DNA of 33,408 nt from a virus, in UHGV virus genome UHGV-0124208, one strand, 5' to 3'. Below the pieces are notes generated by a model. That model was not told the DNA's origin. It made no database searches and saw only the letters and a program-made list of their open reading frames with translations. Made by a program: the position numbers and the translations under genes. Within the stretch, counting starts at the first letter, position 1, and every line of letters starts with the position of its first letter. Positions 20,137-24,707 of the stretch are shown here, one piece after another.

Positions 20137-20355
20137 ATGATGATTTGCCCACTGTGTGGAAGTGCCGCCCATACTCGCAGCAGTTTTCAGGTATCTTCAT
20201 TGACCAAAGAGCGTTACAACCAGTGCCAGAACATTAACTGCAGCCATACTTTTGTTACCCATGAAACTTTTGTTCGTTCGATTGCAACGCCAAAAGAGTC
20301 AAATCCGGTTCAGCCGCATCCAATGAAATCAGGACAGGTAGCGCTCTCTCTTTGA
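20137..20355 (+). CDS. ogr: Ogr/Delta-family zinc-finger late transcription activator
   Basis: From ATG 20137: MMICPLCGSAAHTRSS...KERYNQCQNINCSHTF... (72 aa) with CxxC...CxxxxC spacing like P2 Ogr; the track start at 20104 is a GTG extension. Confidence 0.9.
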   Translation: MMICPLCGSAAHTRSSFQVSSLTKERYNQCQNINCSHTFVTHETFVRSIATPKESNPVQPHPMKSGQVALSL

Positions 20356-20520
20356 CGCTGCCGCCATTTTGTCGCCATCGTTAAAAAACAGTGCTTCTAA
20401 CATCATGATCTTAAACACCATAAATTTCAGGCAACAAAAAACCCATTTATGTAAACGGGTTAATGAAAACAATAAGTTAGAGTAAAAACAATAAGTTGGG
20501 TTGGTGGTCAGTGGTGGTTA
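20356..20520. other. Probable attP region between ogr and int
   Basis: AT-rich non-coding segment in the P2 attP position. It contains a near-palindrome ACCCATTTATGTAAACGGGT (20441-20460) and tandem AAAACAATAAGTT repeats (20466-20478, 20484-20497). It is flanked by a 21-bp direct repeat (20357-20377 and 20540-20560). The core itself is not identified. Confidence 0.5.
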
Positions 20521-21573
20521 TTACGGGGTAATGCCAACCGCTGCCGCCACTTTGTCGCCACTTGGCAGCGTTGCCAGAGGATTGAAACGGAGCGCCGTTT
20601 CCAGATGATCTGGTGCCAGATGTGCGTAACGCATAGTCATTTTTATATCGTGGTGTCCGAGAATTTTTTGTAAGGCGAGAATGTTTCCACCCGACATCAT
20701 GAAGTGCGCCGCAAACGTATGGCGCAGAACGTGTGTGAGTTGACCGCGAGGGAGCACGATAGACGTTTTTTCCATCACGGATAAAAATTGAAAATAGCAG
20801 TCTGTAAAGAAATTGAACCCATCAAGCGCCATGATCTCTTCGTAAAGCTCTTTACTGATAGGGATGCTTCTGTTTTTCTTCCCCTTCGTTCTGACAAAGG
20901 TAATTCGGTATTTGGTCACCTGTGAGCGGGTAAGATTTACGGCTTCACGCCAGCGTGCGCCTGTGCTTAAGCATATCTTAACTACCAGTGCCAGAATTGG
21001 GTCCTGACGTTTGCAATCAGCCAGCAATTCAACAATCTGCTCATGGGTAAGCCATGCCATCTCTTTTTCTGCGATGGTGAATTTTCGCATGTTCTCCAGT
21101 GGGTTCGGATACGACCATTCGCCCAGACGGGATAGTTCGCTAAAAACACTACTTAGATAGCTTTGCTCCAGGTTAATGGTGACCGGGCTTGCTCCTTTCT
21201 TCCATTTCTCGCTGAAGTAGATCTCGCCTGTCAGGCGTTTATCTCGATAGTGGGCAAACATTTTAGAGGTGAGATCGGTTGCAAGAGGATTACCCAGAGC
21301 GTCAACCATCAACAGCAATTTGTCATAGACATGCTGCCCAGCTGTCAGAGATTTACCATGTAGTTTGAACCATAGCTCAACCACGTCTTTCAGTGTTCGA
21401 CGATCCACTGATTCACCCAGCCAGGGCTTTGCTTCGGTTTCTTCTATCGTGTGGCGCTCAAAAGCCAGAGCTTCGCCTTTGGTGGCGAATTGTTTACGCA
21501 CCCGACGCCCACTACGTCCGGCGGGGTAACATTCGCAAAGCCATTTTCCTGTGGTGAGTTTTCGTACTGCCAT
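20521..21573 (-). CDS. int: Tyrosine integrase
   Basis: 350-aa minus-strand ORF; the C-terminus has HVLRHTFAAHF...GHHDIKMTMRYAHL (the R..HxxR..Y tyrosine-recombinase signature); adjacent to attP as in P2. Confidence 0.9.
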   Translation of the reverse strand: MAVRKLTTGKWLCECYPAGRSGRRVRKQFATKGEALAFERHTIEETEAKPWLGESVDRRTLKDVVELWFKLHGKSLTAGQHVYDKLLLMVDALGNPLATDLTSKMFAHYRDKRLTGEIYFSEKWKKGASPVTINLEQSYLSSVFSELSRLGEWSYPNPLENMRKFTIAEKEMAWLTHEQIVELLADCKRQDPILALVVKICLSTGARWREAVNLTRSQVTKYRITFVRTKGKKNRSIPISKELYEEIMALDGFNFFTDCYFQFLSVMEKTSIVLPRGQLTHVLRHTFAAHFMMSGGNILALQKILGHHDIKMTMRYAHLAPDHLETALRFNPLATLPSGDKVAAAVGITP

Positions 21574-21646: not shown

Positions 21647-23416
21647 TCATACGTCAGGGGTAATCCAGTCGACTAAAGCCTCAATACTTTCGAAATCTGC
21701 ACAGATATCTGAAAGAGGTTGTGTATCTGCTTTTGTTTTGAAATCAGCCCATACTGATTCATTTTTTTCTGTAAGACCCAAATGGTTTTCTATCGAACCA
21801 TTTAGCCAAATCCAAATATTTGCATTTCTCAGTTTTGCGGCTAATGATGACAAAAATTCTCTGGCGCCGGGCTTTTGAGACATAATAGCAAATGCTTCAG
21901 CTGCGGTAGTGTTACTACCCTTTGTAGGCAAACCGGATCCATCGAGAGTGCATTCTCCATTAGCATGCATACTTCTCAAGATTTCTTTTAGTCGTAAAAT
22001 ATCCTCGTCATTATGTTCTAAGAAGTTGTTCCTTATTGCACCGCGGAACGCAAAATCTAAATCAACAATTGCTTTTGTAGGTATATCCATTGAATTTAGA
22101 ATTTGCATCGTTTTAGATATACTTTCAACGGACCCTGTTTCAATTAGTGCTATTTGCATCTGACCTAATGTTTTATTTTTAACTTTGTTAAAAATAAATG
22201 GGAGCAGAGTAGTCTCTGTTTTACCTTCTGTTAGTATTACATTGTTAGCAAACAAAACTTTTGAAGACTGTGTTAATGAAAATAAATGGGTTGCTTGTGC
22301 TGGTCGTTGTTCGATTACTTTATTGACTGCTTCTTTTAATGTTAATCTGCAATGAGTGCCACGCTGACTGTTTTTTCTGATTAACACAGTGTCTTTTGCT
22401 AAGTCAGAGGTAATCATTTGAGATGAATGGGTAGAGAAAATTATTTGATATCCATGATGAGATAGTGTTTTTAGAGATTCTCTAATTTGTTCGATAGCAA
22501 ATGGGTGAAGATATAACTCAGGTTCATCTATTAACAGTAGAGTAGTTGTTTTAATATCATCACCGTTGGTTATATCAGCTAAATGTCTTATTAGAGACAT
22601 CTGAATCGAACGCTGTGTGCCATGACCATAAGAAGAACAGTCACGAGCAATGCCGGGAAATGAATCTTCATATACTTTTACAGTCCCAGATTTAAATATA
22701 TCCTTGAAGTCAGGGAGTTCGAAGTGTAGTTTTAAACTTATCCCAGGGAAGAAATCAGCAAGTTTACTACTTATTGAATCATCAATATCATTGAGGTCCG
22801 ATATTCGTTTATTACCGGTTGCAGTCATTCTTCTATTAACGGCATTTAAATGGCTTAGTATCCTTTGAGTGTGCTTCTCTTCTATTTTGCAACTCAATTC
22901 TGCCAGCAACTTACCTATTGTAGTTCCTGTTTTTGATTTTGAAGAATCATCCGCTGCATTTTCCATTGCACCTATACGTATTGGGTCTGGAAATAAAGCT
23001 TTTATCGCATTCTCAATACCCGTTGGTGATGTCCTGAATTCGTTATTTTCTGGGTTTTTAATTAATAATCTGACGTCTTTTGCACTTTGAGCACCAACAG
23101 TCTGTTGACGCTTAAATATCAATACCCCATCAATAATGTAGGGTGAAATTCTAGTTCTGTTTTCTTCTGTTAAAGCTGACAAAATATCTTCAGTAATACC
23201 CTTAACTGTACCTATAACTTCTATAGGGTTATCTGGATTAGTATAATCATCAGAGGACAAAAGTTTTTTCTTAAAAAGCCATTCAATAGCATTTAAAATC
23301 GTTGACTTACCAGCATTGTTGTAACCGATTAAAGGCGTGAATGAAGAAAAATTGATATCAATATCTTTGCAAGATCTAAAGTTTTTTATAGAAATCTTTG
23401 AAAGATGATGATTCAT
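21647..23416 (-). CDS. old: OLD-family ATP-dependent nuclease (N-terminal ABC-type ATPase + C-terminal Toprim), P2 Old-like, single-gene
   Basis: 589-aa ORF. N-terminal Walker A in ISIKNFRSCK...LIGYNNAGKSTILNAI; central FGHGTQRSIQM and LLIDEPELYLHP (Walker B-like); C-terminal VILTEGKTET...VDLDF Toprim-like acidic motifs. AT-rich relative to flanks. Located between cI and int. Confidence 0.75.
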   Translation of the reverse strand: MNHHLSKISIKNFRSCKDIDINFSSFTPLIGYNNAGKSTILNAIEWLFKKKLLSSDDYTNPDNPIEVIGTVKGITEDILSALTEENRTRISPYIIDGVLIFKRQQTVGAQSAKDVRLLIKNPENNEFRTSPTGIENAIKALFPDPIRIGAMENAADDSSKSKTGTTIGKLLAELSCKIEEKHTQRILSHLNAVNRRMTATGNKRISDLNDIDDSISSKLADFFPGISLKLHFELPDFKDIFKSGTVKVYEDSFPGIARDCSSYGHGTQRSIQMSLIRHLADITNGDDIKTTTLLLIDEPELYLHPFAIEQIRESLKTLSHHGYQIIFSTHSSQMITSDLAKDTVLIRKNSQRGTHCRLTLKEAVNKVIEQRPAQATHLFSLTQSSKVLFANNVILTEGKTETTLLPFIFNKVKNKTLGQMQIALIETGSVESISKTMQILNSMDIPTKAIVDLDFAFRGAIRNNFLEHNDEDILRLKEILRSMHANGECTLDGSGLPTKGSNTTAAEAFAIMSQKPGAREFLSSLAAKLRNANIWIWLNGSIENHLGLTEKNESVWADFKTKADTQPLSDICADFESIEALVDWITPDV

Positions 23417-23459: not shown

Positions 23460-24398
23460 TTATTGTATTGTTAAGATAATGCTGGCTATAATTTGAATAT
23501 CCTCAATGGAACACTCAAAATCCTTACTCCCACCAGAAACAAGAATTTTGTTCTTAGGTAAACGAGTTAACTCTTTTAAAGATAACTCATTGTCAATTCC
23601 TACTAACCATTTTCCATCTCTAATTAGGTGAAATTCTTTATCACATATGACATGTTTTTCTCCATTGCTTACAAACATCAAGCTGCTAGTTTCTTGCTTC
23701 GGAAGTAGACACCGATCCATGGATAAAAAACCTGACTCGACAAGCACGCCATTGACCAAATTGAACTTATTTAAAATTACAGTGTTTTCTTCTTGTGAAC
23801 TATTTGGTGTTTCGATTCCTGTAACTAGCCAGGCGAGATCCGCTTTGGTTTCTAATGCGCATTTAATCACCCAATCCGCAGGGAAAGAATCTCGCATGTA
23901 TCGTGTGGCTAATGTGCTTTTTGAAATACCAAGGTGGTCGGCTAAGGCTTGGCGGGTTTTAAACCCGTAAGCATTAACAATCCTCTCTATCGCGGCTTTT
24001 CCTCCGTTAGTAAGCTCAATGTGATTCTCAATGCGGCGCTTAAAGGATGATTGATGAGCGTTGCTGTTAAACCCCTCATGTGGGACTGTTTCATCATGTT
24101 GTTCCACATAAGGGGGGAAACTTTCTTCTGCATTGTTAGAACCAAAGGCCAGCCATTCTAGGGATGCGCCAGTTTCCATTGAACATATAACAACCCAATC
24201 AGCAGGGAAGGTATCGCGTGCATATCTATTAGCCATTGTGCTTTGTGAAATACCAAGATGCTTACAGAAGGCTTGGCGTGATTTGAAACCATAGGCCTTG
24301 AGTATCCTCTCAATGACTTTTTGCCCTCCACGATTCTGCATGACCATAGCTTTCAGACTATCTTCAATATGGCGAAATGTGATTTTTTGAGTTGACAT
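23460..24398 (-). CDS. cI: Immunity repressor CI, coliphage 186 type, with a tandemly duplicated N-terminal DNA-binding domain
   Basis: 312-aa ORF. Residues about 28-85 (VIERILKAYGFKSRQAFCKHLGISQSTMANRYARDTFPADWVVICSMETGASLEWLAFG) and about 128-185 (AIERIVNAYGFKTRQALADHLGISKSTLATRYMRDSFPADWVIKCALETKADLAWLVTG) are two copies of the 186 CI N-terminal domain motif; about 125-aa C-terminal domain. Divergent from apl-cII. Confidence 0.75.
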   Translation of the reverse strand: MSTQKITFRHIEDSLKAMVMQNRGGQKVIERILKAYGFKSRQAFCKHLGISQSTMANRYARDTFPADWVVICSMETGASLEWLAFGSNNAEESFPPYVEQHDETVPHEGFNSNAHQSSFKRRIENHIELTNGGKAAIERIVNAYGFKTRQALADHLGISKSTLATRYMRDSFPADWVIKCALETKADLAWLVTGIETPNSSQEENTVILNKFNLVNGVLVESGFLSMDRCLLPKQETSSLMFVSNGEKHVICDKEFHLIRDGKWLVGIDNELSLKELTRLPKNKILVSGGSKDFECSIEDIQIIASIILTIQ

Positions 24399-24420
24399 AT
24401 TCTTTATGTGAACCTATTCT
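24392..24420 (+). promoter_or_regulatory. Candidate rightward lytic promoter (pR-like) for apl-cII, overlapping the cI start codon
   Basis: TTGACA (24392-24397), 17-bp spacer, TATTCT (24415-24420); about 65 bp upstream of the apl ATG. Sequence-only call. Confidence 0.4.
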
Positions 24421-24485
24421 CCGTTTTGTGATGTTTTGTCACGATTAATACCGGCTCACCACAAGCCAATAGGAGATGTTGCATC

Positions 24486-24707
24486 ATGACCCCTAACATT
24501 TCAATAACTCTGAATACGCCACACGTCACAATTGAGCGTTATAGCGAACTTACTGGTCTTTCTATCGACACCATCAACGATATGCTGGCTGATGGTCGTA
24601 TCCCTCGCCATCGCCTTCGGAAAGACAAGAAAAGAGAAAAGGTAATGATCAACCTTGCTGCTCTTACCGTTGATGCACTTACTGATTGCAATGTTGTATT
24701 CAACTAG
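24486..24707 (+). CDS. apl: Apl/Cox-like small HTH protein (excisionase / lytic-switch repressor)
   Basis: 73-aa ORF, first gene of the rightward operon opposite cI; contains an HTH-like segment [24 protein letters not shown]. Confidence 0.7.

Follow-up and report, generated by a model that had tools for sequence, protein, structure and literature searches.

Gene organisation and sequence elements between ogr and int

The DNA analysed here is the 33,408-nucleotide genome of the virus UHGV-0124208, which is referred to below as the window. Within it, a late activator gene, homologues of which are annotated as 219-bp ogr genes, is followed by the end of an integrase gene (int) encoded on the opposite strand; the elements lying between and around these two genes, and the genes beyond int that bear on attachment site function, are collected in Table 1. 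The ogr stop codon occupies 20353–20355, and the left copy of a direct repeat begins at the next base, 20356. A preliminary description of this region had listed a 21-bp direct repeat, two copies of a 13-mer and a near-palindrome, and each of these elements was found where it had been placed. The 21-mer occurs as GCTGCCGCCATTTTGTCGCCA (20357–20377) and GCTGCCGCCACTTTGTCGCCA (20540–20560), and was extended by a repeat finder to 22 nucleotides (CGCTGCCGCCATTTTGTCGCCA, 20356–20377; CGCTGCCGCCACTTTGTCGCCA, 20539–20560), the two copies being identical at 21/22 positions and 183 bp apart. A search for the 21-mer allowing up to three mismatches recovered this pair and nothing else from the 33.4-kb window, where 100 shuffles give an expectation of 0.00. 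The right copy is located inside the last ~13 codons of int. The 13-mer AAAACAATAAGTT is present in exactly two copies (20466–20478 and 20485–20497; 19 bp from start to start), and the near-palindrome consists of ACCCATTTA (20441–20449), a TG dinucleotide (20450–20451) and TAAACGGGT (20452–20460).

Table 1. Genes and elements at and around the phage attachment site, in window coordinates (a point in the strand column denotes an element given without strand)
Feature	Position	Strand	Remarks
ogr	20137–20355	+	Ogr/Delta zinc-finger late activator; Pfam Ogr_Delta, E = 5e-22
Putative P-arm Int sites	20356–20380	+	TGCCGCCATTT (20359–20369) and TGTCGCCATCG (20370–20380); CGCCA at 20362 and 20373; consensus match
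Short palindrome	20398–20413	.	TAACATCATGATCTTA; inverted repeat in the P arm; weak IHF-like match, 2 mismatches
attP common core	20420–20446	.	ATAAATTTCAGGCAACAAAAAACCCAT; 27-bp identity with the attB allele of strains such as Nissle 1917 and ATCC 11775
Predicted intrinsic terminator downstream of int	20430–20461	-	Stem AACCCGUUUA/UAAAUGGGUU (20440–20461), then UUUUGUUGCC
Crossover segment	20433–20446	.	AACAAAAAACCCAT; last 14 nt of rybB; only block identical to K-12-type attB
Two AAAACAATAAGTT copies	20466–20498	+	Contain the IHF-consensus-like sites AAACAATAAGTTA and AAACAATAAGTTG
TGGTGGT, two copies	20502–20518	+	10 bp apart, just beyond the int stop codon; read from the sequence
int	20521–21573	-	Tyrosine integrase with 186-type arm-binding N-terminus; Pfam Int_N and Phage_integrase
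Putative P′-arm Int sites	20539–20563	+	TGCCGCCACTT (20542–20552) and TGTCGCCACTT (20553–20563); CGCCA at 20545 and 20556
Old-type protein	21647–23416	-	589 aa; PADLOC 'Old' model matched end to end, E = 6e-234
CI repressor	23460–24398	-	312 aa; two Phage_CI_repr HTH domains, then one CI C-terminal domain
Cox-like excisionase/repressor	24486–24707	+	73 aa; PHROG 575 'Cox-like excisionase and repressor', E = 1e-31

Strand exchange in lysogens maps to a 14-bp segment

A 1.2-kb query spanning the region was compared with 5,426 complete E. coli genomes. Matches were found in 1,334 of these and were nearly all split, with an int-side piece starting from 20420 and a separate ogr-side piece. In NZ_CP148378 the prophage lies between rcdA and ybjL, its int side adjoining rcdA and its ogr side adjoining ybjL; attL and attR of this lysogen both contain the window core, their common sequence being AAATTTCAGGCAACAAAAAACCCAT. 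The attB of K-12 reads ATAAGTTTTAGATAACAAAAAACCCAT, and its exact identity to attP is confined to AACAAAAAACCCAT at 20433–20446. In strain GB089 (NZ_CP013663), attL carries host (K-12)-type bases to the left of 20433, whilst the attR on the ogr side retains the phage-type left flank (ATAAATTTCAGGC), such that at every polymorphic position left of 20433 host-type bases segregate to attL and phage-type bases to attR. To the right of 20446, phage and host differ throughout. The segregation on one side and the divergence on the other therefore confine strand exchange to 20433–20446. The proposal that the ogr–int interval is attP, with a crossover inside 20356–20561, thus holds when checked against prophage junctions, as the exchange does not fall outside that interval.

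The distribution of joined and unjoined sites was examined with constructed queries. A chimeric query, in which the K-12-type left flank is joined to the phage P′ arm, matched over its full length at 100% identity in many genomes; the attL junction is present in 1,105 of the 5,426 E. coli genomes (at least 80% of the chimeric query covered). A synthetic attB bearing the 27-bp core was likewise found uninterrupted and at 100% identity in many genomes, those of Nissle 1917 and ATCC 11775 among them, and an uninterrupted attB is present in 4,227 E. coli genomes. The attL annotated independently for Klebsiella phage 4LV2017 is GCAGGCAACAAAAAACCCAT, and several Klebsiella prophage records start exactly at the base equivalent to window position 20447.

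At least two attB alleles occur downstream of rybB in E. coli, one of the K-12 type (ATAAGTTTTAGATAAC…) and one equal to the phage core (ATAAATTTCAGGCAAC…; L005 1462–1490, compared with 20420–20446), and lysogens were found for both.

Two E. coli chromosomes, NZ_CP069542.1 (3571587–3580786) and NZ_CP042893.1, contain an intact ogr–attP–int junction that is bordered by tail genes at one end and by early genes at the other. This arrangement of an intact junction between tail and early genes indicates tandem double lysogens at rybB. The downstream copy in the tandem arrangement has a different immunity region, in which CI is 189 aa long and Old is absent.

The 3′ end of rybB is the bacterial target

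As its bacterial attachment site the phage uses the 3′ terminus of rybB, an sRNA gene situated between rcdA and ybjL. Both annotation and sequence place rybB in the rcdA–ybjL interval of K-12, and the Rfam model detects RybB at full length (79/79, 105.3 bits) in K-12 and at the ogr-side attR of the lysogen, with identical scores. The last 14 nucleotides of the RybB model, AUGGGUUUUUUGUU, are the reverse complement of 20433–20446 and represent the end of the RybB terminator stem together with the U-tail. Since the phage carries this end of the descending terminator arm and the U-tail, rybB is rebuilt intact at the ogr-side junction (attR). Integration at rybB follows the same logic as integration at the ends of tRNA and tmRNA genes.

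The preliminary description had remarked that no tRNA-like sequence was evident and that the target was not obvious. The former observation stands, as ARAGORN finds no tRNA in the 33.4-kb window and the core belongs to rybB rather than to a tRNA gene; the latter is superseded, the target being the 3′ end of rybB. A permissive Rfam scan of 20200–20700 gave only chance-level matches, as expected given that just 14 nucleotides of RybB are carried at attP. The assignment agrees with the literature. For the P2-like prophages of E. coli W, B and Crooks, the insertion site given is rybB (PMC3032704), and a hotspot at rybB has been described that harbours, in 109 genomes, no prophages other than Felsduovirus (PMC10121019). 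In E. coli HS, rcdA flanks the P2-like prophage, and PhiECO1/2/3 and PhiSEN1 have one common site.

We regard it as quite unlikely that lysogeny rewires the host sRNA RybB or phage gene expression, whether through the changed 3′ flank of RybB or through Int acting as a roadblock, and neither effect is indicated by the data. In hosts with a K-12-type attB, integration would replace the sequence just downstream of the RybB U-tail (GUUAUCUAAAAC becoming GUUGCCUGAAAUUU), and would place ogr and the late operon so that they read toward rybB. If such effects did occur, altered termination of, or read-through from, RybB could affect the sigma-E envelope-stress response, and Int bound at arm sites within its own coding end and abutting the ogr stop codon could serve as a transcriptional roadblock or autoregulator.

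The direct repeats match 186-type integrase arm sites

Each copy of the 22-bp repeat corresponds to a pair of head-to-tail 11-bp motifs, TGCCGCCAYTT followed by TGTCGCCA, which are in direct orientation and one helical turn apart. Published arm-site consensus sequences are tgTGGaCa for P2-type and tgccGCCActt for 186-type integrases (PMC3448106, Nilsson et al. 2011), and the first P′ motif, TGCCGCCACTT, is an exact match to the latter. The P′ sites are located inside the last codons of int (…SGDKVAAAVGITP).

For comparison we used the attP regions of ESSI2_ev129, PsP3 and the Yersinia phages GCS667 and MHG38, whose Int proteins are 55–86% identical to that of the window. In the window and in all four of these attPs (4/4), each flank of the core bears two CGCCA motifs with a spacing of exactly 11 bp, and all of them point the same way; in each of the four, the 3′ end of int contains the P′ pair. 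The P-arm pair of ev129 is kept though its neighbouring gene encodes a serine acetyltransferase and not Ogr. The N-terminus of the window Int has W11, E14 and Y16, as do the Ints of PsP3 and the Yersinia Eganvirus phages, whereas the corresponding residues of P2 Int are Y, D and R; the three residues have been proposed to discriminate between 186-type and P2-type arm sites (PMC3448106). Ints 99–100% identical to that of the window are common in E. coli genomes.

From the consensus match and the equally phased pairs in related attPs we infer that the 22-bp repeats are arm-type Int sites, in agreement with the role first suggested for the 21-bp repeats. The location of the P′ pair inside int, and of the P pair abutting the ogr stop codon, accounts for what appears as a 22-bp 'direct repeat'. 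In the predicted arrangement, the N-terminal domain of Int would bind the arm sites whilst its core-binding and catalytic domains hold the core, and the bridging of arms and core by Int would form the intasome.

IHF-like sites and candidate excisionase operators

The two copies of AAAACAATAAGTT had also been put forward as Int sites; they are without the GCCA arm motif and match the IHF consensus instead. Both agree with the consensus, WATCAANNNNTTR, at 12/13 positions, and they are the only 12/13 matches within 20340–20580, the density of such matches being 0.57 per kb window-wide. In ev129, PsP3 and the Yersinia phages, too, the stretch from the core to the P′ arm sites contains plus-strand IHF-like matches, one of them perfect, and the att site of 186 is bound by Int, IHF and Apl (PMC7498355). 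The AAAACAATAAGTT pair probably represents IHF-type bending sites in the P′ arm, a reading we favour over that of Cox operators. Being repeats of a single 13-mer at a distance of 19 bp, the IHF-like sites do not count as independent, and simultaneous occupation of both by two IHF dimers would be difficult. The P arm has no match to the IHF consensus with at most one mismatch; by contrast, other 186-type attPs have a minus-strand IHF match (at most one mismatch) at the equivalent P-arm position.

The Cox-like protein encoded beyond cI is presumed to be the RDF acting at this attP, and would supply the directionality of excision. A comparison of attP (20378–20538) with the cI–cox switch (24380–24500) for a shared Cox operator motif gave only trivial A/T-rich 6–7-mers and one GTGGTGA. 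The two copies of TGGTGGT just beyond the int stop codon are the only candidate RDF operator in attP, and a speculative one. In the 186-like Yersinia attPs, four copies of TTTGCCA spaced 10–11 bp apart lie directly upstream of the P′ arm sites (L008 281–325, and the equivalent in L010); by their spacing these probably correspond to the Apl operator array described for 186.

A predicted int terminator overlaps the core

On the minus strand, positions 20461–20440 can form a hairpin of nine pairs, AACCCGUUUA CA UAAAUGGGUU, followed by the T-run of UUUUGUUGCC, and this element was matched by a terminator pattern scan. The hairpin is contained in the minimum free energy fold, and one of its pairs is a G-U pair on the minus strand that corresponds to an A-C mismatch on the plus strand. 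A perfect palindrome is present at the terminator-hairpin position in ESSI2_ev129. The fold z-score of the hairpin is unremarkable (-1.04), as expected for a short AU-rich stem, and so provides no independent proof. The most plausible role of the near-palindrome is that of an intrinsic terminator stem, at which transcription of the int strand would end; this call draws on the scan match, on the G-U pair formed by one strand only and on analogy to the terminator of RybB. The 3′ arm and T-run of this predicted terminator overlap the core, and would double as core sequence by copying the end of the RybB terminator.

Alternative assignments of the internal elements

The near-palindrome had been proposed to be a pair of core-type sites, that is, inverted C and C′ sites for Int (ACCCATTTA-TG-TAAACGGGT) flanking the overlap region. 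Tyrosine recombinases typically act on core sites that form imperfect inverted repeats, and this dyad does touch the core, but the crossover at 20433–20446 lies to the left of the dyad centre (20450/51), which is itself outside the exchanged segment. In addition, the corresponding place in attB is taken by another hairpin, that of the RybB terminator (CCCATCAACC…GGTTGATGGG), leaving the right half of the dyad without a counterpart in attB; the G-U pair found on the minus strand only, and the T-run that follows the stem, are likewise terminator-like. We therefore consider paired core sites very unlikely and retain the terminator assignment. An operator role for the AAAACAATAAGTT pair has somewhat more to recommend it, since the RDF sites of P2 and 186 are direct repeats within attP (PMC7498355, PMC3936717) and among the direct repeats of the P′ arm the AAAACAATAAGTT copies stand out most. 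Arrays bound by RDFs, however, need at least three adjacent repeats spaced 10–11 bp apart (PMC7498355, PMC3936717), as compared with two at 19 bp here; P2-like RDFs use the same recognition sequence at the switch, yet no copy of AAAACAATAAGTT occurs in the cI–cox region; and motifs similar to AAAACAATAAGTT are found at the same position in PsP3 and the 186-like Yersinia attPs, beside the separate array of four TTTGCCA copies. It is thus unlikely, although not negligibly so, that these are operators of the Cox-like excisionase rather than IHF sites.

For the left 22-mer, a further explanation is that it is a dead relic of the 3′ end of int, a functionless scar of duplication or module swapping that happens to lie next to ogr. 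Its reverse complement (20356–20377) reads GDKMAAAS, to be compared with the Int C-terminus SGDKVAAAVGITP, and the late module is 96% identical to that of Klebsiella phages having another int, with a break at 20321; the identity of the late module in the presence of a different int implies that the attP–int cassette has been exchanged between phages. Against this, the similarity stops sharply at both ends of the 22-mer, the phased CGCCA pair recurs in the P arms of ev129 (with its other neighbouring gene), PsP3 and the Yersinia phages, each within its own sequence variants, and the motif matches the published arm-site consensus (PMC3448106). P2, moreover, has the same two-plus-two layout built from a different motif and located outside its int ORF. 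On the strength of the phased motif pairs beside other genes and the consensus match, we rejected the relic as an explanation and regard it as extremely unlikely; the left 22-mer is accordingly treated here as the P-arm counterpart of the sites in int.

Comparison with known attachment sites

We are highly confident that 20356–20563 is the attP of a P2-like phage with a 186-type integrase. The arm, IHF and RDF assignments within it are putative, drawn from consensus matches and comparative position.

A close parallel in layout is the attP of coliphage 186 and PsP3 (Eganvirus), which is likewise located between the late activator gene and int. It has the same tandem GCCA-centred arm motifs, 11 bp apart and directly oriented in both arms, the same placement of the P′ pair in the 3′ end of int, IHF-like motifs between the core and the P′ arm, and an Int with the W/E/Y residues. 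The 186/PsP3-type Ints are, however, only 55–57% identical to that of the window, and the core of 186 and its Yersinia relatives is a tRNA 3′ end whereas that of the window is 14 nucleotides of rybB. The RDF also differs, being Cox-like (PHROG 575) in the window, where no Apl-type operator array is recognised, and the terminator hairpin, which lies in the P arm of 186-type attPs, overlaps the core here.

In P2, too, the core is situated between ogr and int and has on either side two arm sites that are direct repeats at 11-bp spacing. Its arm motif, TGTGGACA, is of the TGTGGAC(A) type and not GCCA-centred, its P′ sites are outside the int ORF, its Int has the Y/D/R N-terminus, and its core and host site are others. 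According to a reference cited in PMC3936717, P2 Int acts together with IHF and Cox. Phages that integrate at tRNA or tmRNA gene ends, such as Fels-2 and SopEPhi at ssrA, resemble the window phage in that the core duplicates the 3′ end of a gene for a small stable RNA, which is restored upon integration; in the window, by contrast, the target is an Hfq-dependent sRNA, and only the descending terminator arm and the U-tail are duplicated, with no tRNA-like structure.

The rybB-integrating prophages PhiECO1/2/3 and PhiSEN1 (Nilsson et al. 2011) and Rybb*W/B/Cr (Archer et al. 2011) belong to the same phage group and use the same site, and the Felsduovirus hotspot #29 (Hochhauser et al. 2023) is the same site too, rybB between rcdA and ybjL. 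Nothing of substance distinguishes the window attP from those of these prophages. Individual prophages vary in a few spacer bases of the P arm and in what is carried between int and cI, which is Old in the window and a small ORF in others. As the attP layout, the rybB target and the arm-site consensus have all been published, this is an ordinary, already known element, and the attP finding implies no new biology; what is added here is a set of exact coordinates and new assignments for the internal elements.

The value of these additions lies in annotation, the true core (20420–20446), the crossover (20433–20446), the arm sites and the host target rybB now being fixed. They also point to a possible pitfall of calling prophage boundaries from repeats: the conspicuous 22-bp repeat is distinct from the att core, its two copies being internal to the prophage, at 66 bp and 114 bp from the junctions. 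With a prophage at rybB in about one fifth of complete E. coli genomes, correct boundaries are of practical use.

Modular exchange and cargo around attP

The late-gene module (1–20321) is matched at ~96% identity by prophages of Klebsiella pneumoniae (Kp4845-2 and others), the integrase of which is only 54% identical to that of the window. This similarity breaks at 20321, within the 3′ end of ogr, and the position of the break indicates that the attP–int(–immunity) block is a mosaic cassette common to E. coli and Klebsiella phages.

Within this block, the 589-aa protein encoded between int and cI has AAA_15/AAA_21 and OLD-like TOPRIM domains and is an anti-phage nuclease of the Old type, which the phage carries as cargo. 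In other prophages having this int, the position of Old holds just a small ORF, which identifies the int–cI gap as a variable cargo slot. The CI proteins of related prophages are ~189 aa in length with a single HTH domain; the 312-aa CI of the window looks like the outcome of an internal duplication of the DNA-binding domain.
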